64,000 nt of DNA from Planctomycetota bacterium (GTDB lineage Bacteria > Planctomycetota > UBA11346), in contig JANQLF010000122.1 in NCBI GenBank assembly GCA_028280785.1, positions 23,627-87,626 on the forward strand. The letters are read 5' to 3'. The notes below the pieces were generated by a model that ran no database searches, was not told the origin of the DNA, and was given only the letters and a program-made list of their open reading frames with translations. The translations under genes were made by a program, and so were the position numbers. Below are positions 12,123-50,959 of the stretch, one piece after another; the first letter of the stretch is position 1; each line of letters begins with the position of its first letter.

Positions 12123-12124
12123 CG

Positions 12125-12789: not shown

Positions 12790-12790
12790 A

Positions 12791-14948: not shown

Positions 14949-14955
14949 ATAACAC

Positions 14956-21076: not shown

Positions 21077-21412
21077 GACAGCTTTCCTTATTTAAAACAA
21101 TTGTTCGGCCCACCAGGACCACCAAGTAAGACGGACAAGGTGTCCGCGTTTTGGCGCTGATAGACCCAAAACCAGAGTGCTAGAGAGCAACTTGGGCACC
21201 AAGACCACTTGGGACACAAGATAAAAAGCAGAGTACGGTGCTGGGGAAAGGCAGCACCCAAAGTCTTGCCAGTTTTTTTGTTCTTTGCCTTCCTCAGAAG
21301 TGGACGCGGTGGGCAAGGTGTCCAACCCCACACGGAAGCATTTCTGCTGGGAAAAATACACAAAAGCCATGGCCACTTTGCGGCTCGTGCAAAGTGGCCA
21401 GGGTGGACAACG

Positions 21413-22214: not shown

Positions 22215-22235
22215 AATTTCTCCTTAGTTACAGGG

Positions 22236-22601: not shown

Positions 22602-22664
22602 GAGTGGAGGTCATACAGACGACAACTACATTGGCTAAACCCAATCCCAAAAGAGACGCCGGAA

Positions 22665-23735: not shown

Positions 23736-23867
23736 CTAGTGTCAAAGCTGAGTTGATTTGACACTTTAAATCTGAGTCAGAATTATTTTACATGCAGAAA
23801 TGTATTTATAGATAAATTGCGGAGTAAATCGCAGAATCTATAATTCATTTCAATCGGAATTAGTAAA

Positions 23868-25037: not shown

Positions 25038-25049
25038 CACTGACTTGCT

Positions 25050-30080: not shown

Positions 30081-30177
30081 AGCGTAATTGAAATATGACA
30101 TACACATCCAGGACTGTAAAAAATGTAAATTTAAATGACATGCCGTAACCTTACAGTCCTCAACATATATTTCCCTT

Positions 30178-30225
30178 CTTGCCATGCTGTAGGTCGTGAG
30201 TTCGAGTCTCATCACCCGCTCCAAA
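30178..30225 (+). repeat. attR: 48 bp copy of tRNA-Gly 3' part
   Basis: Exact copy of 12075-12122. Confidence 0.85.
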
Positions 30226-34672: not shown

Positions 34673-35965
34673 GTGGCTGAACAAATCGATAGTGCCCCCG
34701 TCAAAGGTGTTCGTGATTTCTATCCCGATGACATGCGCGTGCGCAATTGGTTGTTTGAGCATTGGCGTGCAGTAGCCAAGCAATTTGGCTATGAAGAGTA
34801 CGATGCTTGTGTGCTCGAATCTGAATCGCTGTATGTGCGTAAGGCTGGTGATGAAATAGTTGGTCAACTATATAATTTTGCTGATAAAGGTGATCGTAAG
34901 GTTGCATTGCGACCAGAAATGACACCAAGTTTGGCACGTATGGTTTTAGCCAAGAAAAATAGTTTAGCCTTTCCACTGCGTTGGTTTTCCATTCCACAAT
35001 GTTTCCGTTACGAACGCATGCAAAAAGGTCGTAAACGTGAGCACTTTCAATGGAATATGGATTGCATCGGTTTAGACAGCGTTGCCGCAGAGGTCGAGTT
35101 AATGTCTGCGCAGGTGGCATTTTTACAGAATGTCGGTTTCCAAGTCAGTGCAGAGAAATGTGACATCGCATTTAAAGTTTCAAATCGTCAGGTCCTCCAG
35201 GATTATTTAGCAACATTAAATATCACTGGCGAAGATTTTGCCGCGGTCTGTGTCATTATCGATAAGCGTGATAAAATTGGTGATGAAGCTTGCGCTGAAT
35301 TATTGGCAGAAAAAAATGTCGATGGAGAAACTGCAGGGAAGATCCTCGATTTATTAAATGTTCGTGGGCTCGACGATTTAGCACGGGTAGCAGGCGAGGA
35401 AAATGCCGGTTATCAATCATTAAAAGCATTAATGGAATTAGCAGAAGCAAGTGGTATTGCTCATGCCATTCAAATCGATTGTTCTGTGGTGCGCGGTCTG
35501 TCGTATTATACCGGAACCGTCTGGGAATTATTCGATGAATCTGGATCGGTGCCACGCGCCATCGCCGGTGGCGGTCGCTATGATCGTTTAATGGAAACCT
35601 TTGGTGGCCAATCAGTGCCAATGGTAGGTTTTGGTTTTGGTGATGTGGTTATTGCATTATTGCTCGAAGAGCGCGGACTTATTCCTAACTCCGATGCACG
35701 TGTTGATGATTATATTTATCCAATGAATGAATCGGGTTTTGTTATTGCCAATAAAATTGCTGCAAAGCTTCGCACAGATGGTCAGAAAGTTTTAGTCGAT
35801 TATTCCTGTCGCCGCTTCAAACACGTGATTAAAGCGGCAGAAAACGCAGGCGCATCACGGATGTTTACCCTAGGTGATCAAGAAATTGAAGCGGGTATTG
35901 TTAAGGTTCGTACCATTGGTGCCGAACGCGTAGAAAACGACCATCCAATTTCAGAATTTACCTAG
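34673..35965 (+). CDS. hisS: histidine--tRNA ligase
   Basis: 430 aa; GVRDF, motif 2 FRYERMQKGRKREHFQWNMD and class II motif 3 region; GTG start at 34673 (in-frame ATG at 34652 is also possible). Confidence 0.85.
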   Translation: MAEQIDSAPVKGVRDFYPDDMRVRNWLFEHWRAVAKQFGYEEYDACVLESESLYVRKAGDEIVGQLYNFADKGDRKVALRPEMTPSLARMVLAKKNSLAFPLRWFSIPQCFRYERMQKGRKREHFQWNMDCIGLDSVAAEVELMSAQVAFLQNVGFQVSAEKCDIAFKVSNRQVLQDYLATLNITGEDFAAVCVIIDKRDKIGDEACAELLAEKNVDGETAGKILDLLNVRGLDDLARVAGEENAGYQSLKALMELAEASGIAHAIQIDCSVVRGLSYYTGTVWELFDESGSVPRAIAGGGRYDRLMETFGGQSVPMVGFGFGDVVIALLLEERGLIPNSDARVDDYIYPMNESGFVIANKIAAKLRTDGQKVLVDYSCRRFKHVIKAAENAGASRMFTLGDQEIEAGIVKVRTIGAERVENDHPISEFT

Positions 35966-36089
35966 TGTCGCTGTTGCTGACGCCGAGTGACGGTCGTGGC
36001 TATTTGCCACGAATTTTTCATAGCGAAAGCGGAGAAAAATAGAAACGACAAAGTCAGCGAGGGGCTTGGGGCATTGCCCCAAAACAAAA
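35966..36089 (+). repeat. REP-like repeat family member (124 bp copy)
   Basis: Homologous along its length to 44847-44957 and to the right half of 48800-49096; ends with hairpin GGGGCATTGCCCC then AAAACAAAAG. Confidence 0.6.
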
Positions 36090-36131
36090 GGACGTATTGA
36101 GAAAGATCATCAAATTAGCGAATTCTCTTAA
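36090..36131 (+). other. orphan diverged copy of hisS 3' end (14 codons incl. stop)
   Basis: Translates GRIEKDHQISEFS* versus native AERVENDHPISEFT*; several identical residues use different codons (Ser TCA vs AGC). Confidence 0.5.
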
Positions 36132-36142
36132 ATTTTAATTTC

Positions 36143-36259
36143 TCTCACGGAGGCACGGAGCCACAGAGGGATTAAAAAATTGTGTTTATTTATATAAGTT
36201 ACCTTTTGTTTTGACGATTTAGATGGGAAATGCTTTTAAATCTCCGTGCCTCTGTGAGA
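36143..36259. repeat. 18 bp inverted repeat pair separated by 81 bp
   Basis: TCTCACGGAGGCACGGAG at 36143-36160 and CTCCGTGCCTCTGTGAGA at 36242-36259 (1 mismatch); right arm ends 7 bp from AraC-family gene stop. Confidence 0.5.
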
Positions 36260-36265
36260 ATTTAT

Positions 36266-37147
36266 TTAAGTTAATAAATTTTGGGATAGCCGACGTTGTT
36301 TGGCGCGAATTAACTTCGGTTGATAGGTTCCTGCTTTAATATCGATACGATACTGTTTTGGCGATACTTTATACTGTTGTTTAAATGCACGTGAAAAATG
36401 AAATTGATTTTCAAAGCCACATTCTTCAGCAATGTCTTGCACACTGATATCACTACGTGCTAAAATCATGGCGGCGTGGTCTAAACGAATATTGCGCAGA
36501 CATTGTGCCGGACTGACACCGAGTTCTTGCTTAAAGATGCGCACTAAGTGGCCACGTGATACATCAATAGCTGCGGCAATCTCTTCAACGGCGGGACTGT
36601 GCATGCCATGCAATTGCCATTGATTGCGTACGTAGTCCATTGATTTGCTGATTATGGGATGCTCTTCGATGCCAGTTTCAACGGACACACCTTGAGCACG
36701 CTCATAAATAAAACACAAGAGTGCATGTTTTAAACCTTGCACGGCTAAGGTTTGACTAATGCGATCATCGGCCTGGGCGGTGTAGATGACGTGATTCAGT
36801 AAACGAATTAAAAATTGTTCTTCACCGCATTGAATAATGCGTGGCCAATCACGTGGATTACCGAGGACGTGATTTTTATCCTCAATTTCAAAATGAATAA
36901 AACCGTGGCGAGTGCGTTTACCAGGATCCCAAATAAATGAATCAGTTTCACCTGGACGACATAAACACACGCTGCCTGCAGGCATGGCATAGCGTTCGTC
37001 GTCGGCTATCCACTCGACATCGCCACTGACAATCCATACGAATTCGTAGTTGGTGCAGTGGCGCGGTCCAAAGCTGGCTCCGGCTGGATAATCGGCGACG
37101 CCCATGGAATTGGCATGCTGAACGAGGATGTGATCGAGGCCAATCAT
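36266..37147 (-). CDS. AraC-family transcriptional regulator (N-terminal cupin + C-terminal AraC HTH)
   Basis: 293 aa; C-terminal DIAEECGFENQFHFSRAFKQQYKVSPKQYR. Confidence 0.75.
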   Translation of the reverse strand: MIGLDHILVQHANSMGVADYPAGASFGPRHCTNYEFVWIVSGDVEWIADDERYAMPAGSVCLCRPGETDSFIWDPGKRTRHGFIHFEIEDKNHVLGNPRDWPRIIQCGEEQFLIRLLNHVIYTAQADDRISQTLAVQGLKHALLCFIYERAQGVSVETGIEEHPIISKSMDYVRNQWQLHGMHSPAVEEIAAAIDVSRGHLVRIFKQELGVSPAQCLRNIRLDHAAMILARSDISVQDIAEECGFENQFHFSRAFKQQYKVSPKQYRIDIKAGTYQPKLIRAKQRRLSQNLLT

Positions 37148-37241
37148 CTGAATATGTTACAAAAAGATATGAAATTGTCCACAATAGGCATTCAAATGAG
37201 ATATTTGAGTATATACTGAGGGGCTGAAAAGGAGCATGTAG

Positions 37242-38156
37242 ATGCTAAGCACCAAAACCTTACCACAGATCACCGATGCCATGATCAAGCAGTATGTTGA
37301 GGATGGCTTTCTTATTGTAGAAGATCTCTTTGATCCTGAAGACATCACGGCGATGACTGATGAGGCACCCAAAATTGCCCGCGGCCAAAATGGCTTTCCA
37401 GCACTCTTAGAAGATGTTGAAAACAAAGCAGACGAAGAACTCGAGCGTGAAATATTGTGCATTCACTTTCCACATGCCGGTAGTGAAGTCATTCGCGACT
37501 ATGTCTGTGATGAAAGAGTATCGCATGTTTTGTCGAAGGTGACTGCGGCTCATTTACCTGAATCGTGGTGGGATGGCTCGGTGAAGTGCATGCAGTCGAT
37601 GTATTTTTGCAAAGCACCAGGCATGCCTGGTCAGGCTTGGCACCAAGATGAAATTTATATTCCAACCCGTGATCGTAGTTTAATTGGTGCATGGTATGCC
37701 CTTGATGATGCATCTGTCGAAAATGGATGCTTGTGGGTTATCCCTGGTAGTCATCGCAATGGTATTTTATATGAGCAACGTGCGCATCATGATCCAGAAT
37801 TTGATGGCGCCCAACAAAGTTTTGGTTTTGATGACAGTAGCGAAGTTCCAGTTGAAGTGAAAAAAGGCAGTGTTGTTTTCTTTAACGGCTACCTCTTACA
37901 TCGCAGCGCTAAAAATCGCAGTAAAGATGATTTCCGTCGCGTGCTGGTTAATCACTACATGAACTCGTACTCATTGTTACCATGGGGTGGTGCTGAGGAT
38001 GGCGTACCTGTGGCTCGATCAGATAAGCGCGCCGTCATGTTCGTCAGCGGCAAAGATCCATACCCCGAACGTCCATTGCTTGAATGCAATCACATGTCGT
38101 TGAGAGGAAAGTGTGAGGGCGAAAAGTGGGAGGGCGTCACTCGCGAAACAAATTGA
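37242..38156 (+). CDS. phytanoyl-CoA dioxygenase (PhyH) family Fe(II)/2OG oxygenase
   Basis: 304 aa; AWHQDE (HxD) and GYLLHRSAKNRS distal His/Arg. Confidence 0.7.
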   Translation: MLSTKTLPQITDAMIKQYVEDGFLIVEDLFDPEDITAMTDEAPKIARGQNGFPALLEDVENKADEELEREILCIHFPHAGSEVIRDYVCDERVSHVLSKVTAAHLPESWWDGSVKCMQSMYFCKAPGMPGQAWHQDEIYIPTRDRSLIGAWYALDDASVENGCLWVIPGSHRNGILYEQRAHHDPEFDGAQQSFGFDDSSEVPVEVKKGSVVFFNGYLLHRSAKNRSKDDFRRVLVNHYMNSYSLLPWGGAEDGVPVARSDKRAVMFVSGKDPYPERPLLECNHMSLRGKCEGEKWEGVTRETN

Positions 38157-38218
38157 GTCAAGTTGAATTGTTTATTTCCATTAAGAAATGGCGGTTTTTT
38201 ATGTTGATTAACGCTAAT

Positions 38219-39283
38219 TCAAAATCCGAAATCTTTAGGATTAGCTTTGCCGCGTTTATCACTTGCGCTCACGTATAATTTGAATTTGCCATCATCAGCA
38301 AGAAATAGACATTCGATTTTGGTGTTGGTGAATGTGGCGCTGCTTGAAGTACGAGAAGTTGAGGAGCTCTCCATTCCTCCAGCATGTTTATGAACAATGG
38401 TATCACCACTGCTTTGTGCTATGGCAGAAGTTGCTCCCATTTTTAGCATCATAAGGGTTTGGCCTAAGCCACCAAGATTGACTTTTTCCCAACGACTTGC
38501 ACCAATTTTCTTGCCTTTTGGTCCAATAAATTCGACATCCTGTTTTCGATCTGCTGGTATGAGATAGGCCGTATATTTTTGTTTCTTATGATGGAGCGTG
38601 TAGGCCTTGCCGGTTTCTACTTCGATGGGCTTTTCTAGTGAATTAAAGCCATCAATTTTCACAGTCTTTTGTAAATTCTTGGACATAGTAAATGTAAATT
38701 TTTCTCCGGGCTTAATTGGGTTAGCGCTTTTGGCTCCCTGTTTCGGTTTGACGGAGACATTCACCTGAAGAATGAGACTAGCGTGCCAGTTTTGATTAAT
38801 ACGAATATGCGGTTTGAAATCAGAAAACGTAATGGTGAATCCTGAGCTAGTACTTGGATTTTTATCGAGGTAGGATTTCTTCGCCTCTTTTGCTAATTGT
38901 TTGGTGCAAGCACGTTGTGCAATGTGGTACCAATTAAAAAGTCGATCCGCTGATGTTTCGAGCCAGTAGTTTTCAATGCTAAATTGTCCAGGGGCGGTTT
39001 CTTTGATGATGGCATCCTCAGACAAATCTTTGTCAGTTTTCAAAAAGGTGACTGGAATCTTAGTGTTTTTATTTCTTTTGAATGCGAGTGTATATTGTTT
39101 GTTATGCGTCACATGCAGAGCGTTGTCTTTAATACCAACATCATCAATGGTAAATGATATACTGTCTGGGTTAGCAACGTCTAACTTAAATTCTTCAGCT
39201 GAAATGAGTGGAATGATTACAAGCACAAGAAGATGCGATAATAGTTTGAAGATCATTGATTTGCTCCTTAGGCAAGCGCACAT
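38219..39283 (-). CDS. secreted hypothetical protein
   Basis: 354 aa; N-terminal signal peptide LLSHLLVLVIIPLISAEE. Confidence 0.5.
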   Translation of the reverse strand: MCACLRSKSMIFKLLSHLLVLVIIPLISAEEFKLDVANPDSISFTIDDVGIKDNALHVTHNKQYTLAFKRNKNTKIPVTFLKTDKDLSEDAIIKETAPGQFSIENYWLETSADRLFNWYHIAQRACTKQLAKEAKKSYLDKNPSTSSGFTITFSDFKPHIRINQNWHASLILQVNVSVKPKQGAKSANPIKPGEKFTFTMSKNLQKTVKIDGFNSLEKPIEVETGKAYTLHHKKQKYTAYLIPADRKQDVEFIGPKGKKIGASRWEKVNLGGLGQTLMMLKMGATSAIAQSSGDTIVHKHAGGMESSSTSRTSSSATFTNTKIECLFLADDGKFKLYVSASDKRGKANPKDFGF

Positions 39284-39412
39284 TTATAGATGAGATATGA
39301 ATAGGGCAATAAATAAACTGTCGTATTTGAATCGACAACGAGGCGTTCTGTTCTTGTAGGTTAAACAGTCTGAATATTAGACACATTTTTTAAATTATTG
39401 TTGTTACATGGA

Positions 39413-39493
39413 TTAGCGTTGAAATCGTCGTTCTAACTCTGTCCACGATAGATCTAATGTGGTCGGACGACCATGCGGACAATGTTCCATGTG
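39413..39493 (-). other. orphan recoded copy of mutL 3' end (26 codons + stop)
   Basis: Minus-strand translation HMEHCPHGRPTTLDLSWTELERRFQR* is identical to the MutL C-terminus; 17 of 81 nt differ from 39597-39677, all synonymous. Confidence 0.8.
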
Positions 39494-39596
39494 GCTTTTT
39501 GTTTCGAGACTCCGTCTCGGGCTCTGCGCCTTAAAATATCTCAAGAGCCAAGCTCATTATTGAAATATTTTAATGCTTCACGAACACATGGAACGT
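39494..39596 (-). repeat. REP-like repeat family member (103 bp copy)
   Basis: Reverse complement ends ...GGCGCAGAGCCCGAGACGGAGTCTCGAAACAAAAAG, homologous to the ends of the other copies; contains CAATAATGAG motif. Confidence 0.55.
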
Positions 39597-41417
39597 TTAT
39601 CTTTGAAACCTGCGCTCTAGCTCGGTCCAACTTAGGTCTAATGTTGTCGGTCGCCCATGTGGACAATGTTCCATGTGTTCTAACGTATATAATAATTTGA
39701 CTAGGTTGCGTTGTTCGGCTTCGGAGAGTTTATCGCCAGCTTTGACGGCGCGGTGACAGCTGGCGCTGTGAGCAATGCGTTTACGAATGGCTTCGATGCT
39801 TTTGTCTTTATTGCCATCTTCGGCCATGCTTTCGAAAAAACCTTGCCAATTTATTTTTTTCAAAGCGAGCGGATGGGAGCGTAATAAAATAGTGGTTGGA
39901 CCAAAACATTCGGCTTCGATGCCATGTTCACCCAGACTTTCCAATAGCGGCTCAAGCACAGCAACTTCTGCAGCGCTTAATTCAATATTCTTAGGAACCA
40001 ATAATTCCTGACGCCCACTGCCTTCAAAGTCGGTGACGCTGGGGTCTAAACACAAAAATATGGATTTTTCATGGAGGGCATGTTGATCGACTAAGCGAAT
40101 GCCGAGCTCGGTTTCAATGAGCAAATACATATCATTTAATTGTACAATGCGACGAATGCCGGGTAGGTCATCATTACTGTCGACAGCGTAGGTGCTTTGT
40201 TGTTCAGCAACGGTACTGGTGTCGATGGTTTCTTGTGCTGGCATTTGTGGGACGAAGCGCTCTTGTAGTGCTTCTTGCTGATCTTCTGCTGCTTTAACCA
40301 CCGTACGTTTTACAATGTCATCGCCGCTTGTTACCGGTGAGTTCGGTGCAACGGGAGGTGGGCTCGTTAATTCAGGCGCTGCTGCGGTGTGCAGCATATT
40401 GAATCCACCACTGTTTTTTTCGAGAACTTCACGGATGGCATTGCGTAATATTTTAAATATCTCTCGATCATTGCGGAAGCGAACTTCTGCCTTCGTTGGA
40501 TGCACATTCACATCAATCAATTTTGGATCAGTGTCGATGTGAATAAAAACTGGCGGGTGTAGGCGTGGTTCCAAAAAACCACGATATGCTTCGCGAATGG
40601 CTGCAATGATTAATTTGTCTTTAATATAGCGACCGTTTAAAAAAACGAACTGTCGCTTGGCGCGTGGCTTCGCTTCGCTTGGGTGTGATGCGTAACCGGT
40701 TATTTGCGTGGTATAGCTGTGTCCGTCTATGGCAAATAATTGATCGGTAACATTTTTACCAAATATCGCTCGAATGCGTTGTCCAAGGTGATCGTGAACA
40801 GGCAAGTCGTGAATGACTTTATCGCCGGCAATTAATTCAAAGGCAATGTGCGGATGACTTAAAGCCATGCGCTGAACCACATCGGTAATATGACCAGCTT
40901 CAGCGCTTGGAGATTTGAGGAATTTTAATCGCGCAGGTACATTCCAAAATAAATTTCGAACCGTAACCTTCGTGCCCGGGGCCATGGAACAGGCTTGGAC
41001 ATCTTGAATCTCGCTGCCATGCACGCGCAGCGCATAACCACTGTCATTGTCATGGGTACGGCTGGCAATTTCAAATTCAGAAACAGCAGCAATAGAAGGC
41101 AGTGCTTCGCCGCGAAATCCTAAAGAGTTTATGGCAAACAAATCGTCAGCTGCTTGTAGTTTTGAGGTGGCATGCCGACTCAGGGCGAGAGGTAAATCAT
41201 CTTTGTTGATGCCGTGACCATTATCGGCAATGCTTAATAAATGCTGACCACCATCAGCCATGTGAATGGTGATTTGTGTAGCCCCTGCATCGATACTGTT
41301 TTCAATAAGTTCTTTGGCGACAGCAGCTGGGCGTTCAATGACTTCGCCAGCAGCAATCTTATTGGCGATGTCATCACTGAGTTGATGAATCTGCGGTGGT
41401 TTAGTCTTCAATGTCAT
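39597..41417 (-). CDS. mutL: DNA mismatch repair protein MutL
   Basis: 606 aa; GHKL ATPase blocks (ELIENSIDAGA, DNGHGI), C-terminal dimerisation domain. Confidence 0.85.
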   Translation of the reverse strand: MTLKTKPPQIHQLSDDIANKIAAGEVIERPAAVAKELIENSIDAGATQITIHMADGGQHLLSIADNGHGINKDDLPLALSRHATSKLQAADDLFAINSLGFRGEALPSIAAVSEFEIASRTHDNDSGYALRVHGSEIQDVQACSMAPGTKVTVRNLFWNVPARLKFLKSPSAEAGHITDVVQRMALSHPHIAFELIAGDKVIHDLPVHDHLGQRIRAIFGKNVTDQLFAIDGHSYTTQITGYASHPSEAKPRAKRQFVFLNGRYIKDKLIIAAIREAYRGFLEPRLHPPVFIHIDTDPKLIDVNVHPTKAEVRFRNDREIFKILRNAIREVLEKNSGGFNMLHTAAAPELTSPPPVAPNSPVTSGDDIVKRTVVKAAEDQQEALQERFVPQMPAQETIDTSTVAEQQSTYAVDSNDDLPGIRRIVQLNDMYLLIETELGIRLVDQHALHEKSIFLCLDPSVTDFEGSGRQELLVPKNIELSAAEVAVLEPLLESLGEHGIEAECFGPTTILLRSHPLALKKINWQGFFESMAEDGNKDKSIEAIRKRIAHSASCHRAVKAGDKLSEAEQRNLVKLLYTLEHMEHCPHGRPTTLDLSWTELERRFQR

Positions 41418-41631
41418 CGCGGAACCGAATAAACATAACGTGGTCGGTCTCGCTCATGAGGCGGTCTTCATCGTCCATGACTTCACGGGCTAAAGTTTCC
41501 AAGCGGACGCCGAGGATTTTTTCAGCAGGAATTTCACGAAGGCTGCGATTAGTTAAGGTCTCAAGTTGCTCAAGACTATTAGCTGCGTCTTCTATCAGCG
41601 ATATTAAGCGAATCTGAATGTGTTCTGCCAT
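41401..41631 (-). CDS. small acidic hypothetical protein overlapping mutL start
   Basis: 76 aa ORF, 17 bp overlap with mutL. Confidence 0.3.
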   Translation of the reverse strand: MAEHIQIRLISLIEDAANSLEQLETLTNRSLREIPAEKILGVRLETLAREVMDDEDRLMSETDHVMFIRFRDDIED

Positions 41632-41668
41632 GGCTCTACTAGAAATACTCGGTCATAAAACACAAGAC

Positions 41669-42412
41669 TTAAAGTGGGGCGAATTCTTCGCCTTCCTTGT
41701 GTAGATGCGTAAGCCGTCTACCGAGAGAAACAATGTACAGAAGGATGAAATAGGCGATGTAGCACTCTTTCAGTTCTTGCACTTCATTAAAATAAAAGTC
41801 TAAACCAAACCAATCTTCAATTTTAGAAGGCCAAGTTGAAATGGTGGTGATGACAGCCGTTGGCAAGCAAACCCAGGTCGGCCATAGCCACCAAAATCGT
41901 CTGGTGTGATGAACGCGCCACGCTTTGTAGTAAAATAAAAGCGGGATGAATACACCACCTACAAAGACGAGTAACGATACCACGCCTTTTGGATGTCGGT
42001 CAAACCATTCTGAGGTGTTGTGAATATTGGTTTCTTTTTGGTCATTATGCTCAAGAAAGAATTCGCTAGTTTCCCAGCCAAACCAATGTTGTCCCCAGCT
42101 TGCTTCTTCACCAGCAAAATAAATGCAGCCAAGGCAATAGAGAACCAGAAATATTTTCAAGAAAAGATGTAGTGATTTACCAAAACGAACAATGATGCTC
42201 ATGGTACATACAAGGGCAAAAAGCAGGAAAATAACTGTTAAATTTTCAATGATTCCTAATTCATGTTGAAGATAGGATTCTATGCCTTTTTTTGCTGTAC
42301 CAAAAAAGTGAGCGACATAACGAAACACATAAAATAGTATCGGCAGATGTAACCACCAAAACATATTTATTTCATGGTTAATGGAGTCGTCAGTAAGCTC
42401 GGAATCACTCAT
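41669..42412 (-). CDS. polytopic membrane protein, paralog A
   Basis: 247 aa; shares GIIENLTV and GEE.SWGQH.FGW.T.E blocks with adjacent paralog. Confidence 0.55.
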   Translation of the reverse strand: MSDSELTDDSINHEINMFWWLHLPILFYVFRYVAHFFGTAKKGIESYLQHELGIIENLTVIFLLFALVCTMSIIVRFGKSLHLFLKIFLVLYCLGCIYFAGEEASWGQHWFGWETSEFFLEHNDQKETNIHNTSEWFDRHPKGVVSLLVFVGGVFIPLLFYYKAWRVHHTRRFWWLWPTWVCLPTAVITTISTWPSKIEDWFGLDFYFNEVQELKECYIAYFILLYIVSLGRRLTHLHKEGEEFAPL

Positions 42413-42415
42413 AGT

Positions 42416-43159
42416 TTAGGCTGCTGTATTAGAATCTGAGACAGCATCATCTTCATTCTCAGGGTGTAGGCGCAAGAATAATGTGACGATGAAAATGAGG
42501 AAAAAGAGCGTAACCATGCATTCTTTGATTTCGGCAATGTTGCCGGGGTGAGGAATTTTAAAGCCAATTTTACTTAGTCGCTGAGGGAGTGTGATAACAA
42601 AAGAAAGCAAGCCTACCGATACACAGGTAAAAGAAGGCCATAACCACCACATTTTTTTATCGCGATCGCTGTGTAATTTTTTGTACTTAAACCAGCGAAA
42701 GAGTGGCATAAGACCACCAAAAATAAATATGAGGGCACTTAATACTGTTCGTGCTTTATTACCGAATCCATTAATGTTGTGAAGATTTGTTTCCTGCTGT
42801 TTATTAATGGCAGCAAGTGACTCTGGTGTTTGCCAACCGAAAAAATGTTGACCCCAGCTGAGTTCTTCGCCGGCTATGACGAAGCAACCAAGAGCAAAAC
42901 AGACAAGAAATCCTTTAAGTAGTTTATCGCTAGTGAACTGACCTTTTCTAAACAAAATAATTATGGGTATGATAGCAATTACTGCGAATAGGACGGTAAG
43001 ATTTTCGATTATGCCAAATTCACCATGCATGAATGAATTGAAATTACGCACAACTTTCAGCTTATGGAGAATGAAGTAACTGAAGTAGACGATACAGAGG
43101 ACTATGGGTACCCACAGCCACAACCATTTGGGTACTAGGAGTTGATCGTCTCGTTGCAT
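42416..43159 (-). CDS. polytopic membrane protein, paralog B
   Basis: 247 aa, same length and motifs as paralog A, 3 bp apart. Confidence 0.55.
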   Translation of the reverse strand: MQRDDQLLVPKWLWLWVPIVLCIVYFSYFILHKLKVVRNFNSFMHGEFGIIENLTVLFAVIAIIPIIILFRKGQFTSDKLLKGFLVCFALGCFVIAGEELSWGQHFFGWQTPESLAAINKQQETNLHNINGFGNKARTVLSALIFIFGGLMPLFRWFKYKKLHSDRDKKMWWLWPSFTCVSVGLLSFVITLPQRLSKIGFKIPHPGNIAEIKECMVTLFFLIFIVTLFLRLHPENEDDAVSDSNTAA

Positions 43160-43250
43160 GAGTGCTGAGTTTTAGGCATATAATGCCGATGCAAGCTCAC
43201 TGGAAATATTATTATAGACCCTACCATGCGCCCCTCGAGGAGATCCGGGG

Positions 43251-44846
43251 ATGATTACTGCTTCAGAAATCACCGTCGCCTTTGGCGAAAAGCCACTCTA
43301 TGAAAATGTTAGTCTGCGCTTAACCGCAGGTAACTGCTATGGTTTTATTGGTGCAAATGGCTGCGGTAAAACGACCTTTATCAAGGTACTGTCTGGTGAA
43401 ATGGAGCAGAACGCAGGTACGGTCACCTTGGATCCCGGCATGCGTATGGCCACCTTAAAGCAAAATCAATTTGGTTATGAAGATCAAAAAGTCATGGATG
43501 TGGTTTTGCAAGGTTATGAAGAAGTATGGCAGTTGCAGTTGGATATGGACGCCTTGTATGCTAAAGAAGATTTTTCTGATGCTGATGGTGAGAAAGTTGC
43601 AAAGTTACAAGAACGCTACGATGAATTAGATGGCTATTCGCAAGAATCGAATGCCGCTGAAGTATTAACCAATCTTGGTGTGAGCCCTGATGTACATAAC
43701 AGTGCGATGTCTGAAATAGATGCCACGTTGAAGGTGCGTGTTTTATTAGCTCAAGTAATTTTCTCGCGGCCAGATGTATTGTTGCTCGACGAGCCAACTA
43801 ATAACTTGGACATTGAAACCATCGCCTGGCTTGAAAAATTCTTGGCAGATTACGAAGGTTGTATTGCCGTAGTGAGCCATGACCGACACTTTTTAAACCG
43901 TGTTTGTACCCATGTCTGCGATGTTGATTTTCAAACAATCCGAACATTTGTTGGGAATTGGGATGTATACGCAGCATCCGAAGCACTTGCTCGTGCGCAG
44001 CGCAGTAAAGAAAAAGCACGTGTTGATAAGCAAGTGGAAAAATTAAAGAGCTTTGTCCAGCGTTTTAAAGCCAATGCATCGCGTTCGAAGCAAGCGACGA
44101 GTCGTATGAAGCAAATCGACGCACTCGGTTCACAACAAGTCTTACCATCAAGTCGCGTGGCTCCGCGTATTAATTTTAAACAAGAACGTGAAAGTGGTCA
44201 GGATATTATTAAAGCTGAAGGCCTCAGTTTTAAATACGATGATGGTCCCGAAATTTGTAATGATTTAGATCTGCGCTTGGAAAAGGGTGAGCGCTTGGCG
44301 ATTGTTGGTCGTAACGGTATTGGTAAAACCAGTATTATTAAATTGCTCAATAATGAATTAACACCGCAAGCAGGATCAGTGACCCTTGGTGGAACCATTA
44401 AAGTCGGTTACTTCCCACAAGACAGTCGTCATCTGTTTGAAAAAGACATCGATATTGTGACGTGGTTGCAGCAGTTCACGGACAACCAGGACATCAATAA
44501 CATGCGCGCGATGCTCGGTCGCATGCTCTTCTCGGGTGACGATGTGAAGAAATCGGTAACTGTGCTTTCGGGTGGTGAAAAGGTGCGTTGTTTGATGTCG
44601 ATGCTGATGCTTCAAGAAGCCAACTTGCTGATCTTAGACGAACCGACTAACCACTTGGATTTGGAATCGATCGAAGCTCTCCAGGAAGCCTTGGAAGAGT
44701 TCAAAGGTAGCATCATCTTTGTCAGCCATGACCGTGAATTCGTTGACCACGTCGCCAGCCGCGCCCTGGTTATGACCGACGAGGAGGGCATCGTCGATTG
44801 GCGAGGTACTTACTCTGAATACCGCGACTCAAAGGGCCTGGATTAG
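43251..44846 (+). CDS. ABC-F family ATPase (EttA/Uup-like, two ABC domains, no TMD)
   Basis: 531 aa; two Walker A (GANGCGKTT, GRNGIGKTS), two signatures (LSGGEKVR...), inter-domain linker. Confidence 0.8.
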   Translation: MITASEITVAFGEKPLYENVSLRLTAGNCYGFIGANGCGKTTFIKVLSGEMEQNAGTVTLDPGMRMATLKQNQFGYEDQKVMDVVLQGYEEVWQLQLDMDALYAKEDFSDADGEKVAKLQERYDELDGYSQESNAAEVLTNLGVSPDVHNSAMSEIDATLKVRVLLAQVIFSRPDVLLLDEPTNNLDIETIAWLEKFLADYEGCIAVVSHDRHFLNRVCTHVCDVDFQTIRTFVGNWDVYAASEALARAQRSKEKARVDKQVEKLKSFVQRFKANASRSKQATSRMKQIDALGSQQVLPSSRVAPRINFKQERESGQDIIKAEGLSFKYDDGPEICNDLDLRLEKGERLAIVGRNGIGKTSIIKLLNNELTPQAGSVTLGGTIKVGYFPQDSRHLFEKDIDIVTWLQQFTDNQDINNMRAMLGRMLFSGDDVKKSVTVLSGGEKVRCLMSMLMLQEANLLILDEPTNHLDLESIEALQEALEEFKGSIIFVSHDREFVDHVASRALVMTDEEGIVDWRGTYSEYRDSKGLD

Positions 44847-44957
44847 AAATCTATTCCAGACGCCGAGAGCCGTTCAGGCCTACTTGGCCTGACATTTTCG
44901 TAGATAATGAGGATCGACAAAGTCTGCGGGGTCCGGGGCAGAGCCCCGAAACAAAAA
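44847..44957 (+). repeat. REP-like repeat family member (111 bp copy)
   Basis: Hairpins CAGGCCTACTTGGCCTG and CGGGGCAGAGCCCCG; ends AAACAAAAA; homologous to 35966-36089 and 48970-49096. Confidence 0.6.
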
Positions 44958-45005
44958 AGGCGTGGTACATATTCTGAATACCGCGACTCAAAAGGCTTGG
45001 ATTAG
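44958..45005 (+). other. orphan recoded copy of ABC-F gene 3' end (15 codons + stop)
   Basis: Translates RRGTYSEYRDSKGLD* versus native WRGTYSEYRDSKGLD*; 5 synonymous differences (CGA/CGT, ACT/ACA, TAC/TAT, AAG/AAA, CTG/TTG) around a 20 bp identical core. Confidence 0.75.
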
Positions 45006-45084
45006 AGGGTAAGTAAGCCCGAAGCTGCAGTCCAGTAGTTGCTTAGGTTGGATTTGAACTAGCATCTCGCCTCCACTGATTGAG

Positions 45085-45513
45085 GTGGCAAAGGAAGGAC
45101 GAGCTATGAAGCGCATAATAGCACTGTCGGCTATGACGAGTACCTACGTGATGGGTGCCGGTGAAGATCTCACTGCACCAGTTCCAGCAGGACCAGAAAA
45201 CGGTCAGGACCAAAGCCAACAAGCACCGGGCGGAATGGGTTTCCCATTCTTCATGCTCATTTTGATGTTGGTCTTCATGTACTTCGTCTTGATTCGTCCA
45301 CAAAATAAAGAGCAGCGTCGTCGTCGTGGTATGATGGATGATCTCAAGGTTGGTGACATGGTCGTGACCATCGGTGGTCTCCATGGTGAGGTTGCGCGCA
45401 AAGGTGAGAACGACATAGATCTCAAAGTCGCTGAAAATACAGTCATGACCTTTAACCTTGGTGCGGTTAACCAGGTGGTTAAAGACGGCGAAAAATTAAA
45501 CGGTCAAGAATAG
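45085..45513 (+). CDS. yajC: preprotein translocase subunit YajC
   Basis: 142 aa (GTG start; may start later); FVLIRPQNKEQRRRR...KVGDMVVTIGGLHGEV typical YajC. Confidence 0.7.
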   Translation: MAKEGRAMKRIIALSAMTSTYVMGAGEDLTAPVPAGPENGQDQSQQAPGGMGFPFFMLILMLVFMYFVLIRPQNKEQRRRRGMMDDLKVGDMVVTIGGLHGEVARKGENDIDLKVAENTVMTFNLGAVNQVVKDGEKLNGQE

Positions 45514-45523
45514 GTCGAAATAA

Positions 45524-48500
45524 ATGAAGCACCGTTTCGGCTCTATATTTATTGTATTTGTAATAGCAGTAAGCTTATTATATCTGCAAAATAAAGTTTA
45601 TGTCGGCAGTCAGTATTATTTTGCTGAAGCAGTTCCAGTAAAACAAGGTGAAGAGGTTAAGTATCCATTTGTCAGTAAAGAAGGTGGGTATTTCTTACTC
45701 AAGGATATAGCCGGAAAAGCATTCGAACCGACAGCATTACAAATCGAACAATTTAAGTATTTTGCCGAACGTGGTTCTGATGGTAAGCCATTCCTGATTG
45801 ATACAGAAAATATAACCGTCAACGGGATGATGATTGAGTATAAATTTCAAAACTCATCACAAGTTAATTTACGCAGACTGAAAAAATTTGAGAAACGTCT
45901 TTTAGAGTTTTCTTTCTCTGAACCAAATAGTGAACGTGATTTATTATTCGTACCACTTGGTATTGACTTACGTGGCGGTGTTGAATTTATCTGTTCACTG
46001 TACGATGATGATCAAAATCGTGTAGAGGCTGAACAGCAAACTGTCGACATCCTACGCACTCGTTTAGAAACGCGTGGTTTATCAGAGCCACAGGTATCGC
46101 GTTTAACCAACGGTGATATTCAGGTGGTCATTCCGGGCGGCGGTAAAGCAGAAGCGGCTCGGACGCGTAAAGTATTAGAGACCACCGGTAAATTAGAATT
46201 CCGTGAAGTGCTCGAGGTCTTTGGTATTGAAGATGAAGAGGCTTTTAGCAGCCATGAACCCGGTGAACAAATTATTATCAATAAGAAGGGTAAGCCGGCT
46301 TTCAAACCAGGTGGTGGTGCTGGTTTTGATACCCTTGGTGAAAAATTATATCCACTCAAGGCTCCACGCGGTCAAACCCCATTGGCCTTCTATCGTTTGG
46401 GTCCGGCAAAAATCACTGGTCAGCATGTAGAAGATGGCTTTACCACAGCTAACGATGATGGCACGCCAGCAGTTGGTATTAAATTAAATGCAACTGGTGG
46501 TTCGATTAGTTATGAGTGGACTACCGATGTGAAAAAACGCGGTCCACTTGGTGAGAGTACGGGTGGATCTGGTCGTTTTGCAATTTGCTTAGATGGCGTG
46601 GTGTTTTCAGCACCGCGGGTACAGGAGCCAACCGGCGTTCACAGCCGCATTACTGGTCAGTTTACCACCGAAGAAGTAAACAACTTAATTTTAGTTTTAG
46701 ATACGGGTGCATTAACGGTTACCCCAGAAGTGTTATCTGAACGCGTAATTGGTGCGACCTTGGGTAAAGAAACCATCTCAAAGGGTTTGGTCGCAATGGT
46801 AACGTCATTAGCGATCATTCTTGGCTTTATTGTGATGTACTATCGCCGCCTTGGTGTGGTAGCGATGGTCAGTTTGGCAACCACCTTGGCTTTAGTGTGG
46901 ACGGCTGTTTCTGTATTTAGCATCACGATGACTTTGCCTGGCTTGGCTGGTTTGGTTTTAACGATTGGTATGGCGGTCGACGCAAATATTTTGATCTTTG
47001 AGCGTATCCGTGAGGAGATATCAGAGGATGTTGATTTACGTACCTCGTTGGATGCTGGTTATGCGCGAGCATTTTTAACAATTTTTGATGCGAATGTAAC
47101 GACCTTTTTAACAGCGTTTGTCTTGGCTTGGATTGGTACCGGTGCGATAAAAGGTTTCGGTAATACCCTTATGATCGGTATCGTTACCTCGATGTTTGGT
47201 GCGATTTATATTGGTCGGATTATTACCGACTTTTTATATCATAAAATAGACAGCACTAAAGTTAACGATTCCTTGTCGAAATTACCATTAGAGCAACCAT
47301 ATGTCAGTTGGCGTATGCCTGCCGCTATTTTATCGACATTGGTTATTATTGTCGGCATGTACACTTTTATAGCTGGTGGATCTAAGCATTTCGCGATTGA
47401 CTTTACTGGTGGTAACATGGTACAGGCAACCTTGGTGGAGCCGAAGTCTTTAGAGGAAATTCAAGACACCTTGGAAAAAGCTTACAAATCTGACCCAGAA
47501 AAATACAATCTACTCGGTGAAGATTTGCAAATTTTGCCATACTTTAGTGATTTTGAAGAGAGTGGTGAGAAGAGCCGTCAGTATGTGTTTAAGGGTCGTG
47601 ATGATCAGGCGATCATCATTAATAAAAATATGGCCGGTCAGCAAGAAGCCTTATGGAAAGTGAGTGAGAAAAAGAATACCAAACTCAACGAAGGGGTTCC
47701 GTTAACTGATCCAGCAATTAGAGAGTTGAATAAAGAAATCGCTAAATTGAAATTAGAGTTACAGCCATTTAAGGATCAATTAGCTGAGCGTATTGAAGTA
47801 TTTAAATCACAATTGGCTAGCGCTTTAGCAGGTATGATCATAGCAGAGCATTCTGAATTAGTGGCGATAAGCTTTGATGAGCAACGTATGAGCATAACGC
47901 TTACGATGTTAAGTGTTGCCGATGATACGCAAAAAGCTCAGGTCAATGATGGCATGCTTAAGCGCAATGATTTAACAGATGTTTCTATAAGCACAGATGA
48001 TGTGCGCATGACCTTTAATGCTAAATACGTTCGTGACATAGACGTTGATCCAGCAATTGGTGATAAGCAAGTGACTGCCATGAAGGAGCAAGACGCACTG
48101 TGGGCGCGTATGTATGATCAACTTGATGCAGCGACACCAGTCTCTGATCGTTATGCGCATGCGACGTTATTACGTAATTATTACGACACCTGTGTTGATC
48201 GTGCCGCATCAAGTGGTTTGCAGGTAGCGGCGGCTTATCCAGCAACTGACCATTTCTCGCCACAAGTGGCATCGCAAATGAAAAATAAAGCCTACTTAGC
48301 ATTGGGCTTTAGCATGTTGGCTATTTTATTTTATATCGCTATGCGTTTCGAATTCCGTTACGGTGTTGGTGCAATTATGGCATTGACCCATGACGTCATC
48401 GCGACGGTTGGCATTTTGGCTATGCTCGGTGTGCGCATTGATTTAACCGTTGTTGCAGCGTTATTAACCATCGTTGGTTATTCATTAAACGATACCATCG

Positions 48501-48799: not shown

Positions 48800-49096
48800 G
48801 TTTCGAGGGGCTCTGCCCCTCGTGCTCCCCCGCGACGGTTGCACGGTCAAGCCGCATCAAGATCGCGACTATTTTTCTCCGTTTAGAACTGCGAAAAATC
48901 CAGGTCAAGTAGACCTGACCGTCGCTCGGTCGTAGCCGGTTGCAGAAGCAACCGAAGAGCGCGCCGAGTTCTCGAGGCGGCGAGCACCGATGAATGGTCT
49001 GAGCTATATGCGAAGAATTTTTCGTAGCGTCAGCGTAGAAAAATAATGAAGACAACGCTCGCGGGGGAGCCCGAGGGGCAGAGCCCCTCGAAATAA
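48800..49096 (+). repeat. full-length BIME/MITE-like element with 35 bp terminal inverted repeats
   Basis: TTTCGAGGGGCTCTGCCCCTCGTGCTCCCCCGCGA at 48801-48835 versus reverse complement of 49059-49093 (1 mismatch). Several internal hairpins. Fills the exact interval between the secDF stop and the convergent regulator stop. Confidence 0.65.
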
Positions 49097-50959
49097 TCAG
49101 ATTACTTTATATTGACGCAATTTTGCGTAGAGCGTTGAACGATCTATGCCAAGCACTTCGGCGGTGGCTTTTTTGTTGCCGCCGCAGTGATCGAGGACGC
49201 GAAGGATGTGCATTTTTTCGACGTCAGCTAATGGGGCGATCGGTGAATTAAAGTTTTCATCTTCGCCACCGCTGATGCCGTCGGGTAAATCGCTGGCTTC
49301 GATTACTTTTCCCGCAGCCAAAATATTCACGCGTTCAATAGTGTTGCGTAATTGGCGTACATTACCTGGCCAACTGTAGCGCAGTAATAAGGCGCGTGCT
49401 TCAGGGCTGAATGTTTTTGCGGTTTCACTTAAGCGATTGGCGCTCTCATGTAAAAAGTGATCGATTAATGTGTCGATATCTTTTGGTCGATCAGAGAGTG
49501 GTGGAATATGTACTGATAAAACATTTAGGCGATGATAGAGATCTTCACGGAAATTACCGGCTTTAATCTCTTCCTCTAAATTGCGATTGGTTGCTGCGAG
49601 GATGCGTACATCAACTTGGCGTACCGAGCCTTCACCAACGCGTTGCACTTCACCTTGTTCAAGTGCGCGCAATAATTTTGCCTGTACCGACATTGGCAAT
49701 TCACCGACTTCGTCGAGGAAGAGCGTGCCTTGATCAGCTAATTCGAATAAACCAGGTCTGGTTTCATCGGCACCAGTAAAGGCGCCTTTAACATGACCAA
49801 ATAATGCAGACTCAATTAATGATTCGGCAATAGCGGCACAATTAATAACCTGCAAGACATTGGTGTTACGTTTACTTTGTTGATGAATGGAGCGGGCAAC
49901 TAATTCTTTGCCGGTACCACTAGCACCAGTTACCAAAATTGGCGCGTCAGTTGGTGCAGCTTTTTCAATAAATTGAAAGACAGTATCCATGCTTGGATCA
50001 CTGCCGATCAGATTTATTTTTTGTGTTTCTTGTTCGTCTTGTTGCAGACGTTCTACTTCTGCTTCAAGTTCAGCAACATGATCACAGTTATATAAACGGA
50101 TGGCTAATTGATTGGCAACCGCATGTAAGAATTCTAATTGAACGCGACTAAATGGTTTATCGCCATCAAGACGGTCGACATAAATTAAGGCCTGTAATTC
50201 TTCACCGATACGAATCGGCGCAGCCATCGCACTGCGTACGCCTGCCTGCATCATTGATGAGCTTGGGTCGACGTCACCGCCAATAGTACAGAGCATAGGC
50301 TCTTGGGTTTTACGTACTTGTCGCAGTAAGGTGCCAGCGAAAGGGGTGCTACCGAAGCGGGCGCGTAAGCGACGTTCATGCGGTGGCCATAAGGCCCAAT
50401 CATCAGGCGTTGGTAAAAAGACCGCGCAGCGTTCGCCTTCCAGAGCATCTGCCGCAACATCATCTAAAATTTCAAATAATTCATCACGGGTTTTGACTTC
50501 ATGGCTGCGTAGGACGACTTCATGTAATAACACTAAACAGTCGTGGGCTTCACGAATAATTGGATCTTGAATAACGCTTGAGGTAAACAGGACGCTGCTG
50601 CTGTCGAGGCCTTCCATGTCCCATGAAAAATCATCTTCAGCATAAGCAATAGTTTGGTCGACTTCTTCCGCGCTTTCAGCTTCATAGCGAATGTAGGTAT
50701 GACCGATTCGAAAGATGTAACCATCACTGAGCTCTTGCTGCTCGATGGAACCATTATCATCCCAAATGCCATTGGATGAATTTAAATCGCGTAGGGTGTA
50801 GCGTTTATTGGCAAAGGTGATTTCGCAATGGATGCGCGAGGCTTTAGCGTCCTCCAACTTGATCGCATTGGTACTATCACGACCCAATGTCGCCCGCTTT
50901 TTGTCTAATTTGAGGACAAAGCCTTGTCCGGGACCTTCGACGATTCGTAGTTGTGGCAT
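49097..50959 (-). CDS. sigma-54-dependent transcriptional activator with N-terminal FHA and central GAF domain
   Basis: 620 aa; FHA (ATLGRD...NSSNGIW); AAA+ sigma54 domain (VTGASGTGKE, GAFTGA, ESALFGH); C-terminal Fis-type HTH. Confidence 0.8.
   Translation of the reverse strand: MPQLRIVEGPGQGFVLKLDKKRATLGRDSTNAIKLEDAKASRIHCEITFANKRYTLRDLNSSNGIWDDNGSIEQQELSDGYIFRIGHTYIRYEAESAEEVDQTIAYAEDDFSWDMEGLDSSSVLFTSSVIQDPIIREAHDCLVLLHEVVLRSHEVKTRDELFEILDDVAADALEGERCAVFLPTPDDWALWPPHERRLRARFGSTPFAGTLLRQVRKTQEPMLCTIGGDVDPSSSMMQAGVRSAMAAPIRIGEELQALIYVDRLDGDKPFSRVQLEFLHAVANQLAIRLYNCDHVAELEAEVERLQQDEQETQKINLIGSDPSMDTVFQFIEKAAPTDAPILVTGASGTGKELVARSIHQQSKRNTNVLQVINCAAIAESLIESALFGHVKGAFTGADETRPGLFELADQGTLFLDEVGELPMSVQAKLLRALEQGEVQRVGEGSVRQVDVRILAATNRNLEEEIKAGNFREDLYHRLNVLSVHIPPLSDRPKDIDTLIDHFLHESANRLSETAKTFSPEARALLLRYSWPGNVRQLRNTIERVNILAAGKVIEASDLPDGISGGEDENFNSPIAPLADVEKMHILRVLDHCGGNKKATAEVLGIDRSTLYAKLRQYKVI

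Follow-up and report, generated by a model that had tools for sequence, protein, structure and literature searches.

A 64,000-nucleotide stretch of a Planctomycetota bacterium (contig JANQLF010000122.1 of assembly GCA_028280785.1), referred to here as the window, contains a mutL gene of which the last 26 codons and the stop codon are encoded a second time just downstream of the gene. The working end is called copy A and the displaced end copy B. They are separated by a spacer of 103 bp (39494-39596) that holds a hairpin-rich repeat element. The features of the locus are listed below.

39597..41417, minus strand: mutL, 606 aa, endonuclease-type (open reading frame (ORF) list; Pfam matches HATPase_c_3, DNA_mis_repair and MutL_C; homologs)
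39668..39680, minus strand: IR-L, GAACACATGGAAC, lying across the junction GAA/CAC; in the RNA fold it pairs with IR-R over 13 bp
39597..39677, minus strand: copy A, the working last 26 codons of mutL and the stop codon, encoding HMEHCPHGRPTTLDLSWTELERRFQR
39582..39594, minus strand: IR-R, GTTCCATGTGTTC, exactly complementary to IR-L and located just past the stop codon of copy A; present in element-bearing mutL loci only
39494..39581, minus strand: the repeat element proper, approximately 88 nt, delimited by alignments and a covariance-model match; it comprises an AT-rich long hairpin (39528-39576), the linker GCGCAGAGCC and the GC hairpin CGAGAC-GGA-GTCTCG (39505-39519)
39494-39504, minus strand: the tail of the element, AAACAAAAAGC, assigned by its coordinates
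39413..39493, minus strand: copy B, the displaced last 26 codons of mutL and the stop codon, encoding HMEHCPHGRPTTLDLSWTELERRFQR and starting right after the tail of the element
39406..39412, minus strand: TCCATGT, following the stop codon of copy B, possibly a degenerate remnant resembling IR-R, on the weak basis of 7 nt only

The two segments, 39677-39597 and 39493-39413, indeed encode one and the same peptide, HMEHCPHGRPTTLDLSWTELERRFQR, as had been stated in the original prediction, which was made from the sequence alone. In the alignment they differ at 16 of the 81 nt, whereas 17 had been counted before. The differences affect 13 codons and all 16 are synonymous, including the codon-family switches noticed earlier, i.e., Ser AGT/TCG, Arg AGG/CGA and Arg AGA/CGC. 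The alignment also bears out the block of 17 identical nt at the gene-proximal edge (CACATGGAACATTGTCC) and the distance of 103 bp between the copies. The copies differ at a proportion of 0.73 of their synonymous sites, which is close to saturation, and the peptide remained unchanged in 0 of 100,000 simulated random sets of 16 substitutions (P<1e-5). Divergence that is restricted to synonymous changes means that both copies have evolved as coding sequence, so that drift of non-coding DNA is rightly excluded as its cause. There is no third copy of the mutL end in the window, as judged by a search with the core allowing three mismatches and by a six-frame peptide search.

The repeated segment includes the CPHGRP and FxR motifs of endonuclease-type MutL. 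Among the reference genomes (GTDB representatives), the nearest MutL proteins, from uncultured Planctomycetota, show at most 58% identity, and all of these finish with EHMEHCPHGRPTTLDL.W.EL..RFQR directly before the stop codon. Judging by these sequences, the segment is almost invariant in protein throughout the phylum, and an identical peptide may therefore derive from a distant lineage. A duplicate mutL end is absent from these reference-genome homologs, and 14 more distant genomes lack the array. The junction point, X (GAA/CAC), is situated at the start of the repeated segment, where the sequence reads GAA followed by CACATGGAAC. The core at this junction, CAC/T-ATG-GA, specifies the residues HME, which are invariant in the endonuclease region of MutL.

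An artefact of assembly or sequencing had been named beforehand as a possible refutation. The source is metagenome-assembled and short direct repeats are prone to misassembly, but the probability of this explanation is negligible. With only 80% identity between the copies, an assembler cannot collapse or expand them. The Logan assembly of SRR20820735 matches the window with 100% identity along 12,768 bp, a stretch in which the duplication is contained, although it is possibly built from the same reads. Moreover, the architecture of the mutL-end array is present in five other contigs, which come from three other samples and were obtained with different assemblers, which argues against an artefact.

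These contigs were obtained by taking the four closest MutL relatives (L016-L019, 73-76% identity) with their flanks from ENA metagenomes, while an additional locus, L024, was found by means of an ABC-F look-up. Several of the related contigs are from low-coverage assemblies (3-5x) with homopolymer differences. An array of one or two 184-bp units is present in five of the six mutL loci, i.e., in the window (W), L016, L018, L024 and L019, and is missing in L017. L018 has three mutL ends and L017 one, while the other three relatives each have two. Successive ends are separated by spacers of 103-104 bp that can be aligned to the spacer of the window. In W, L016, L018 and L024, the peptide of the displaced copy is perfectly kept despite heavy synonymous divergence. 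In L019, the second mutL end has lost its first six codons and carries one F->L change, in the FxR motif. As to the native copy in W, L017 is the only element-free relative, and its mutL end is 14 nt away from copy A and likewise 14 nt from copy B.

The most informative relatives are L018 and L024, which are near-identical haplotypes from the same sample. Their mutL bodies are 97-100% identical across the last 2 kb, with 100% identity over the 400 nt preceding the repeat, and from copy B onward the identity is 98.4%. The order is mutL-B-sp2-C in L024 and mutL-A-sp1-B-sp2-C in L018 (sp, spacer), a difference of exactly one 184-bp unit. Copy B, with its 81 nt identical in both haplotypes, works as the mutL end in L024 but is displaced in L018. 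This switch demonstrates directly that displaced copies once were, or could become, working ends, and it accounts for their divergence at synonymous sites only. Within L018, copies A and C differ at 3 of 81 nt, copy B differs from both at 10-11 nt, and sp1 and sp2 are 66% identical. The array thus places units of differing origin side by side. Comparison of L018 1-4583 with L024 additionally reveals a mosaic, as the identity is 98-100% in the ABC-F gene and mutL and 30-75% over approximately 2 kb between them (L018 560-2550). The latter segment holds two unknown ORFs of around 250 aa each, and the pattern of identity indicates recombination or replacement of this segment.

The spacer of the window does not contain an ORF according to the ORF list. 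It belongs to a family of structured repeats. A covariance model was made from six copies of the element and then used to find more; the mutL element, itself among the six building sequences, has a score of 89.9 bits (E=5e-22). Members of the family are around 90-115 nt long and non-coding, with two to three hairpins and an A-rich tail. Their layout consists of a long variable hairpin, GCGGRG, a GC hairpin with an AGA-type loop, and AAACAAAAAG; GCGGRG on the 5′ side and AAAC on the 3′ side of the GC hairpin are conserved. At the related mutL loci, the spacers start after the stop codon with TGTTCCATGTGTTC (IR-R), followed by the long hairpin; next come GCGGAGC and a GC hairpin of six pairs, the loop of which is AGA or GGA, and lastly AAACAAAAAG(Y). 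The sequence of the long hairpin varies while its pairing is kept, both sides being changed in 10 of the 25 predicted pairs in the mutL-locus alignments. In the GC hairpin, compensating changes are found among copies as well (CGAGGC/GCCTCG, CGAGAC/GTCTCG, CGGGGC/GCCCCG and CTAAGGC/GCCTTAG). The 3′ module is 82-100% identical among genomes with saturated synonymous sites and with MutL proteins that are 73-76% identical. The hairpin resembling a right end and the 11-nt tail are precise in every copy, and the subfamilies are without a common left end.

The window holds five 3′ modules, one each after hisS, mutL and the ABC-F gene and an inverted pair beside secDF. In general, the elements occur solo, in tandem or in inverted pairs, and they are mostly oriented with the upstream gene. 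Elements without an adjoining gene end are present in L019 (3140-3244), in L018 (5098-5158) and after hisS in L020. In L022, four head-to-tail units of 113 nt in reverse orientation lie between hisS and an AraC gene, and two more are located on the same 5.2-kb contig, which thus has six copies. As elements exist without gene ends, both solo and in arrays of four, the element is an entity separate from the gene end. All five solo elements in the window and its relatives stop 0-4 nt from the stop codon of a convergent gene. The two modules beside secDF bound a 297-bp gap (48800-49096) between secDF and the convergent gene 49097..50959, with their tails pointing outward and located 0-3 nt from the stop codons, an arrangement like that of REPINs or terminal inverted repeats:

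48800..48833, minus strand: 3′ module with its tail abutting the stop codon of the convergent secDF; one arm of the tail-out inverted pair
49061..49096, plus strand: 3′ module with its tail abutting the stop codon of the gene 49097..50959 (minus strand); the other arm

From its sequence and distribution, this family is a REP/BIME- or MITE-like one that sits at gene 3′ ends in this Planctomycetota lineage, and the spacer had rightly been called REP-like. A search of Rfam with window 39000-40000 (E<=10) returned just a chance match to a miRNA, and the mutL unit does not contain an intrinsic terminator or a promoter-like site; on the gene strand, the hairpin precedes A's instead of T's. The exact 3′ module has 0 matches in the JGI metagenomes. 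A shorter hairpin pattern matched 98 stretches there, all of them unrelated coding sequences or other repeat families, so that the family was not found in this collection. Two other identities were considered and rejected. A CRISPR-like reading, with 'GAAAC' as repeat and the flank as guide, does not fit since there is no array, the unit measures 184 bp and the flank is just 80% identical to its target. The template and variable repeats of a diversity-generating retroelement do not fit either, as the differences are synonymous and span all four bases instead of being confined to adenines; reverse transcriptase genes are absent from the nine neighbouring ORFs (Pfam) and from the Pfam-annotated genes of L015 (window 36185-48952).

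The association between the element and a displaced gene end is not limited to mutL. Two other genes in the window, encoding an ABC-F ATPase and the histidyl-tRNA synthetase HisRS, are organized in the same way:

44802..44846, plus strand: working end of the ABC-F gene (43251..44846), encoding RGTYSEYRDSKGLD and the stop
44859..44959, plus strand: subfamily 2 element after the ABC-F gene, ending with GCGGGGTCCGGGGCAGAGCCCCGAAACAAAAAAG (covariance model 31.9 bits, E=7e-6)
44961..45005, plus strand: displaced ABC-F end of 14 codons and the stop codon, encoding RGTYSEYRDSKGLD; 5/45 nt differ, all synonymous
35927..35965, plus strand: working end of hisS (gene 34673..35965), encoding RVENDHPISEFT and the stop
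35979..36091, plus strand: subfamily 2 element after hisS, with hairpin TTGGGGC-ATT-GCCCCAA and tail AACAAAAGG (20.8 bits, E=0.01)
36093..36131, plus strand: displaced copy of the hisS end, encoding RIEKDHQISEFS and the stop; same length and stop position, conservative residue changes, Ser TCA/AGC

For the ABC-F pair, an all-synonymous outcome has P=6e-4 in the random-substitution simulation. The duplicate is absent in three relatives, L023, L024 and L025, and the event is probably recent in this lineage, to judge from these sequences. The displaced hisS end resembles the C-termini of HisRS in relatives (ERIENEHNISEFV, ERIENEHSLSEFAD and others). Among the relatives, hisS is followed in L020 by an element without a displaced end, in L022 by the four tandem reverse elements and in L021 by no element. 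A fourth case was found in L017, where the last six codons of an ORF of 129 aa are repeated after a degenerate module (approximately 5340-5398), with 2 of 21 nt differing, both synonymous. A scan for gene-end repeats, covering the window and all related loci, returned the cases of mutL, ABC-F, hisS and this ORF only. A displaced, coding-like gene end hence begins exactly at the tail of an element in at least four different genes. The length of the duplicated end varies (21, 39, 45 and 81-97 nt), and the identical block at the junction is just 4-5 nt for ABC-F and hisS, compared with 17 nt for mutL in W and 26 nt in L018. The stretch from the displaced hisS end to the AraC gene includes an 18-nt inverted repeat at 36142-36260 (TCTCACGGAGGCACGGAG and CTCCGTGCCTCTGTGAGA, 17/18 complementary, enclosing around 80 nt), possibly another kind of hairpin element or else a terminator that serves both hisS and the AraC gene.

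The original prediction interpreted the locus as the scar of an element that integrated into the gene 3′ end with its own replacement end, in the manner of e14 and phage 21, and of which only 103 bp remain. The coding history of both copies and the double role of copy B, working in L024 and displaced in L018, agree with an integrating element that carries a replacement end; the large, integrase-borne type of element does not hold. It is true that the layout and the identical block of 17 nt at the 5′ edge recall attL and attR with their core, and that tyrosine integrases occur in the same window. Nevertheless, a large element at the mutL 3′ end that was later deleted down to 103 bp is highly improbable. 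The 103 bp are not the remainder of something larger, as they correspond to a conserved structured repeat that recurs at the same site in five genomes (W, L016, L018, L024 and L019), with two copies in L018, and that in other places has no gene end beside it; it is not credible that separate large islands decayed to the same 103 bp. The same repeat additionally adjoins the displaced ends of two other genes in the window, whose identical blocks measure no more than 4-5 nt. The suggestion to look in related strains for a bigger element at this site was followed, and at every related filled locus the units between mutL ends have spacers of 103-104 bp and nothing larger. Finally, the integrases nearest to the mutL unit are located 14-25 kb away and belong to a tRNA-Gly island.

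This island comprises window 12044-30223. The last 32 nt of a tRNA-Gly(GCC) gene (12089-12120) are perfectly repeated at 30192-30223, at a distance of 18.1 kb. The island resembles a classical integrated defence island and may consist of two tandem elements. Its genes are as follows:

13767-14948 and 23868-25037: tyrosine integrases
12791-13390: TIR-domain protein
14956-17688: AAA/SMC-like ATPase
19724-21076: DUF927 protein
25050-30080: Type ISP restriction-modification enzyme, 1676 aa

IR-R is a distinctive part of the mutL units. It can pair with the start of copy A or with that of copy B, and in the RNA fold copy A is closed by the 13-bp stem of IR-L and IR-R (z = -5.0). Behind mutL, IR-R is lacking in L017 and in the 14 distant genomes, and the solo element of L019 does not have it either. 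In four of four genomes it follows the variant of the site, i.e., GGAACA in W and L018 versus GGAGCA in L016 and L019. As it is confined to mutL loci and tracks the site variant, IR-R belongs to the mutL segment that is carried with the element. A guide that works by base pairing is one possibility for its role, and a by-product of the unit's origin another. A guide in the style of TnpB and its omega RNA, situated in the flank after the tail, was rejected, since copy A retains the same 17-26 nt and would be targeted itself.

Fold and pairing also bear on the possibility that copy B is kept by selection, either because the unit is removed from DNA or RNA so that copy B serves as the end, or because copy B is part of a regulatory device in the mutL mRNA. 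The strong fold, the ability of IR-R to pair with both copies, the sense orientation of the unit in the 3′ untranslated region and the perfectly conserved displaced peptides of W, L016, L018 and L024 are in line with such a function. However, both ends give the same peptide, so that switching between them alters nothing in the protein. In addition, the displaced copy of L019 is shortened and has the F->L change, the displaced hisS copy differs in residues, L020 has an element without a displaced end, and L017 and L021 are without an element. The unit furthermore does not match an Rfam family and lacks promoter-like or terminator-like sites. A function of copy B is very unlikely in view of these observations. 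Translation of a 25-aa peptide from the ATG of copy B was rejected as a general explanation, as the ABC-F and L019 copies are without an ATG.

What was observed directly, namely the anatomy of the unit, its membership of a repeat family, its recurrence at three genes of the window and in related genomes, the one-unit polymorphism and the coding-type divergence, would be accounted for by the gain of a cassette. This is the explanation that we favour, with moderate confidence. The mutL cassette would have a length of 184 bp and consist of the last 26 codons, the stop codon, a flank of 16 nt (IR-R) that can base-pair with the insertion site, and the element. It would enter the gene at the shared core CAC/T-ATG-GA, upon which its gene end would take over as the working end, while the resident end would be shifted downstream to a position directly behind the tail of the element. 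Every displaced copy would thus have been the working mutL end up to its displacement, and since it had served as such, the copies would differ at synonymous sites only. Subsequently, the arrays would lengthen or shorten by recombination inside the 81-nt repeats, through Campbell-type or unequal crossing-over. Candidates for the joining step are a REP-associated Y1 transposase that acts at the hairpin-plus-tail end, perhaps aided by pairing between IR-R and its target, or host homologous recombination alone. That the gene-proximal copy arrived together with the element is inferred, as are the joining mechanism and the enzyme, the source of the carried end and the direction of the change between L018 and L024. 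The anatomy and the recurrence of the unit are solid, and the mechanism is testable. To our knowledge, ORF-less cassettes of this kind have not been described.

Several observations weigh against the gain of a cassette. Firstly, the junctions of the different genes do not share a common target (TAGAA, ATTG, CGAA and TGCA), and the ABC-F and hisS units do not contain a convincing site-complementary segment. Secondly, the difference between L018 and L024 fits a loss equally well, as the first 26 nt are common to copies A and B, and a deletion from one to the other would have the same outcome. Thirdly, the near-identity of copies A and C in L018 suits a duplication in situ about as well as an imported end, and the same applies to the two ABC-F copies of W, which at 5/45 nt resemble one another more than they resemble the ends of L023, L024 or L025. 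Fourthly, an excised form, an empty site or a transposase was not seen for the genome of the window itself, and the enzyme of the REP-associated type described below lies in another genome (L017), in which flanking REPs are not clearly seen, so that no enzyme is tied to the element. Lastly, the sample is small, with around ten loci from four metagenome samples.

A duplication in situ is the most serious alternative, although we consider it a good deal less probable. The segment from X to the stop codon would be duplicated when an element inserts or is exchanged, either by widely staggered cuts or by an unequal exchange, catalysed by a REP-associated tyrosine transposase (RAYT), between the tail of the element and a secondary site at the gene end on the sister chromosome. 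The copies would be identical at birth and would later be replaced homologously by alleles in working use; as such alleles come from working ends, only selected, synonymous variants would appear. The 3/81 nt between copies A and C of L018 are readily understood in this way, and so are the ABC-F copies of W, which are nearest to each other and share the lineage-specific D of YRDSK and 20 identical nt. The variable length of the duplicated end and the A-rich tail with the copy right behind it, as in target duplications, point in the same direction. So does the alternation of one copy between the working and the displaced state in a recombining population (L018 and L024), where the flanks are mosaic, with blocks of 98-100% identity beside a block of 30-75%. 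On the other hand, the nine element-flanking pairs examined do not include a single identical or near-identical one, the differences ranging from 10 to 36%. The synonymous divergence of 73% in W would require donors as distant as other genera, for which homologous recombination over 81 nt is inefficient. Moreover, we know of no bacterial transposition mechanism that yields target duplications of 20-100 bp.

As for the enzyme of a cassette, recombinase genes are absent in and beside the mutL unit, according to the Pfam annotation of nine neighbouring ORFs and the gene list of L015. These neighbours encode a PhyH dioxygenase, an AraC-family regulator, the ABC-F ATPase, HisRS, a rhomboid-domain protein and three ORFs without a match; the remaining one, 42416..43159, has a sub-threshold match to DUF6326 only. 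RAYT, tnpA and tnpB genes are likewise absent from the 64-kb window. In L017, however, the protein encoded immediately downstream of mutL (4176-4775) matches NF047646, the REP-associated tyrosine transposase family, with 83.3 bits (cut-off 80) and has the Pfam domain Y1_Tnp. The presence of this RAYT fits the REP-like nature of the repeats, to which it is linked by association only. The slot between mutL and the PhyH gene holds different genes in the relatives, the RAYT gene of L017 being one of them. In the window, an ORF of 354 aa (38219-39283, minus strand) lies directly past the mutL array; it is without a Pfam or NCBIfam match and has a hydrophobic N-terminus (MIFKLLSHLLVLVIIPLISA...). 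In L017, the RAYT gene and the 129-aa ORF, of unknown identity, directly succeed mutL (4112-5400). Ahead of the RAYT gene lies a sequence of 27 nt (approximately 4115-4142) that recurs in inverted orientation inside the gene (approximately 4607-4634). A more far-reaching version of the cassette explanation can be formulated, but is speculative and, in our estimation, doubtful. The units would be ORF-less mini-elements, autonomous in form yet dependent on an enzyme, which home to housekeeping genes (mutL, hisS and ABC-F) at the 3′ end, with the recoded end keeping the insertion silent and, in the mutL type, the 13-nt IR-R serving as guide for a Y1 (RAYT-type) transposase.

If the gain of cassettes is true, tiny non-coding repeats would be able to enter conserved and essential genes without cost by bringing along the codons that they displace, a solution so far known for integrase-borne islands and for homing-endonuclease ORFs in mitochondria. 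It would also provide a handle on how REP-like repeats move and choose their sites, given the precise tail junction, the site-complementary IR-R and the RAYT encoded at this locus in a relative. Short gene-end fragments that lie orphaned behind intergenic repeats would then be marks of past exchange between lineages instead of annotation noise. In the case of mutL as a target, an imperfect event would yield a mutator and raise homeologous recombination.

Among the known systems, integrative elements that carry a replacement gene end are represented by e14 and phage 21 at icd and by many tRNA and tmRNA islands. The mutL locus resembles e14 and phage 21 in the order of gene body, new end, insert and displaced old end, in the block of identity at the junction, in the separate coding history of the displaced end and in the possibility of tandem arrays at one site. 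It differs from them as the mutL insert is only 103 bp long and gene-free with no integrase nearby, and as several unrelated genes are involved, so that there is no single att core. The integrase class is represented in the window by the tRNA-Gly island, which, with its perfect 32-bp repeat and two integrases, is unlike the mutL unit.

Miniature derivatives of IS200/IS605 elements (PATEs) are comparable as well. They are non-coding, have a subterminal hairpin at approximately 10 nt from a precise 3′ end, insert in a strand- and orientation-specific way and have a Y1 transposase as candidate enzyme. Base-pairing target recognition is a feature of the IS200/IS605 family. Unlike PATEs, the units have no matching left end and no conserved target of 4-5 nt, there is no tnpA or tnpB in the window, and PATEs do not carry host gene ends. 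In the literature, no report was found of REP or IS605 elements that are flanked by recoded duplicates of the upstream gene end.

REPs, BIMEs and REPINs with their RAYTs share with the present family that they are short intergenic repeats with GC hairpins, many of them at gene 3′ ends, which occur single, in tandem or in inverted pairs, and that a RAYT-class protein is present, here in the related genome L017 (PMC3116915, PMC2817692). The present unit differs in being longer, 90-115 nt, with two to three hairpins and an A-rich tail. RAYT genes are typically flanked by their REPs, and REPs have a conserved tetranucleotide of the GTAG type, used for cleavage, at the foot of the hairpin; the hairpin of the present family has GCGGRG and AAAC on its two sides.

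The last comparison concerns the gene hybrids created by mobile ORFs in mitochondria, which are known for atp6 of Allomyces macrogynus and for atp6, atp9, cox2 and nad3 of Glomus (PMC3630166). In these hybrids as well, a foreign C-terminal segment is joined in frame and the native C-terminal segment is displaced downstream, with diverged DNA and a similar or identical protein, and several housekeeping genes are hit in one genome (PMC3630166). The mobility of the mitochondrial inserts is explained by the homing-endonuclease ORF (LAGLIDADG or GIY-YIG) within them (PMC3630166), whereas the present case concerns a bacterium and a repeat of around 90 nt without an ORF. These hybrids, which occur in fungal mitochondria, are the nearest functional counterpart that was found. 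Should the units indeed home to gene ends as mini-elements, they would be the bacterial, non-coding equivalent of these hybrids and would illustrate how REP-like repeats invade coding sequence and cross species.

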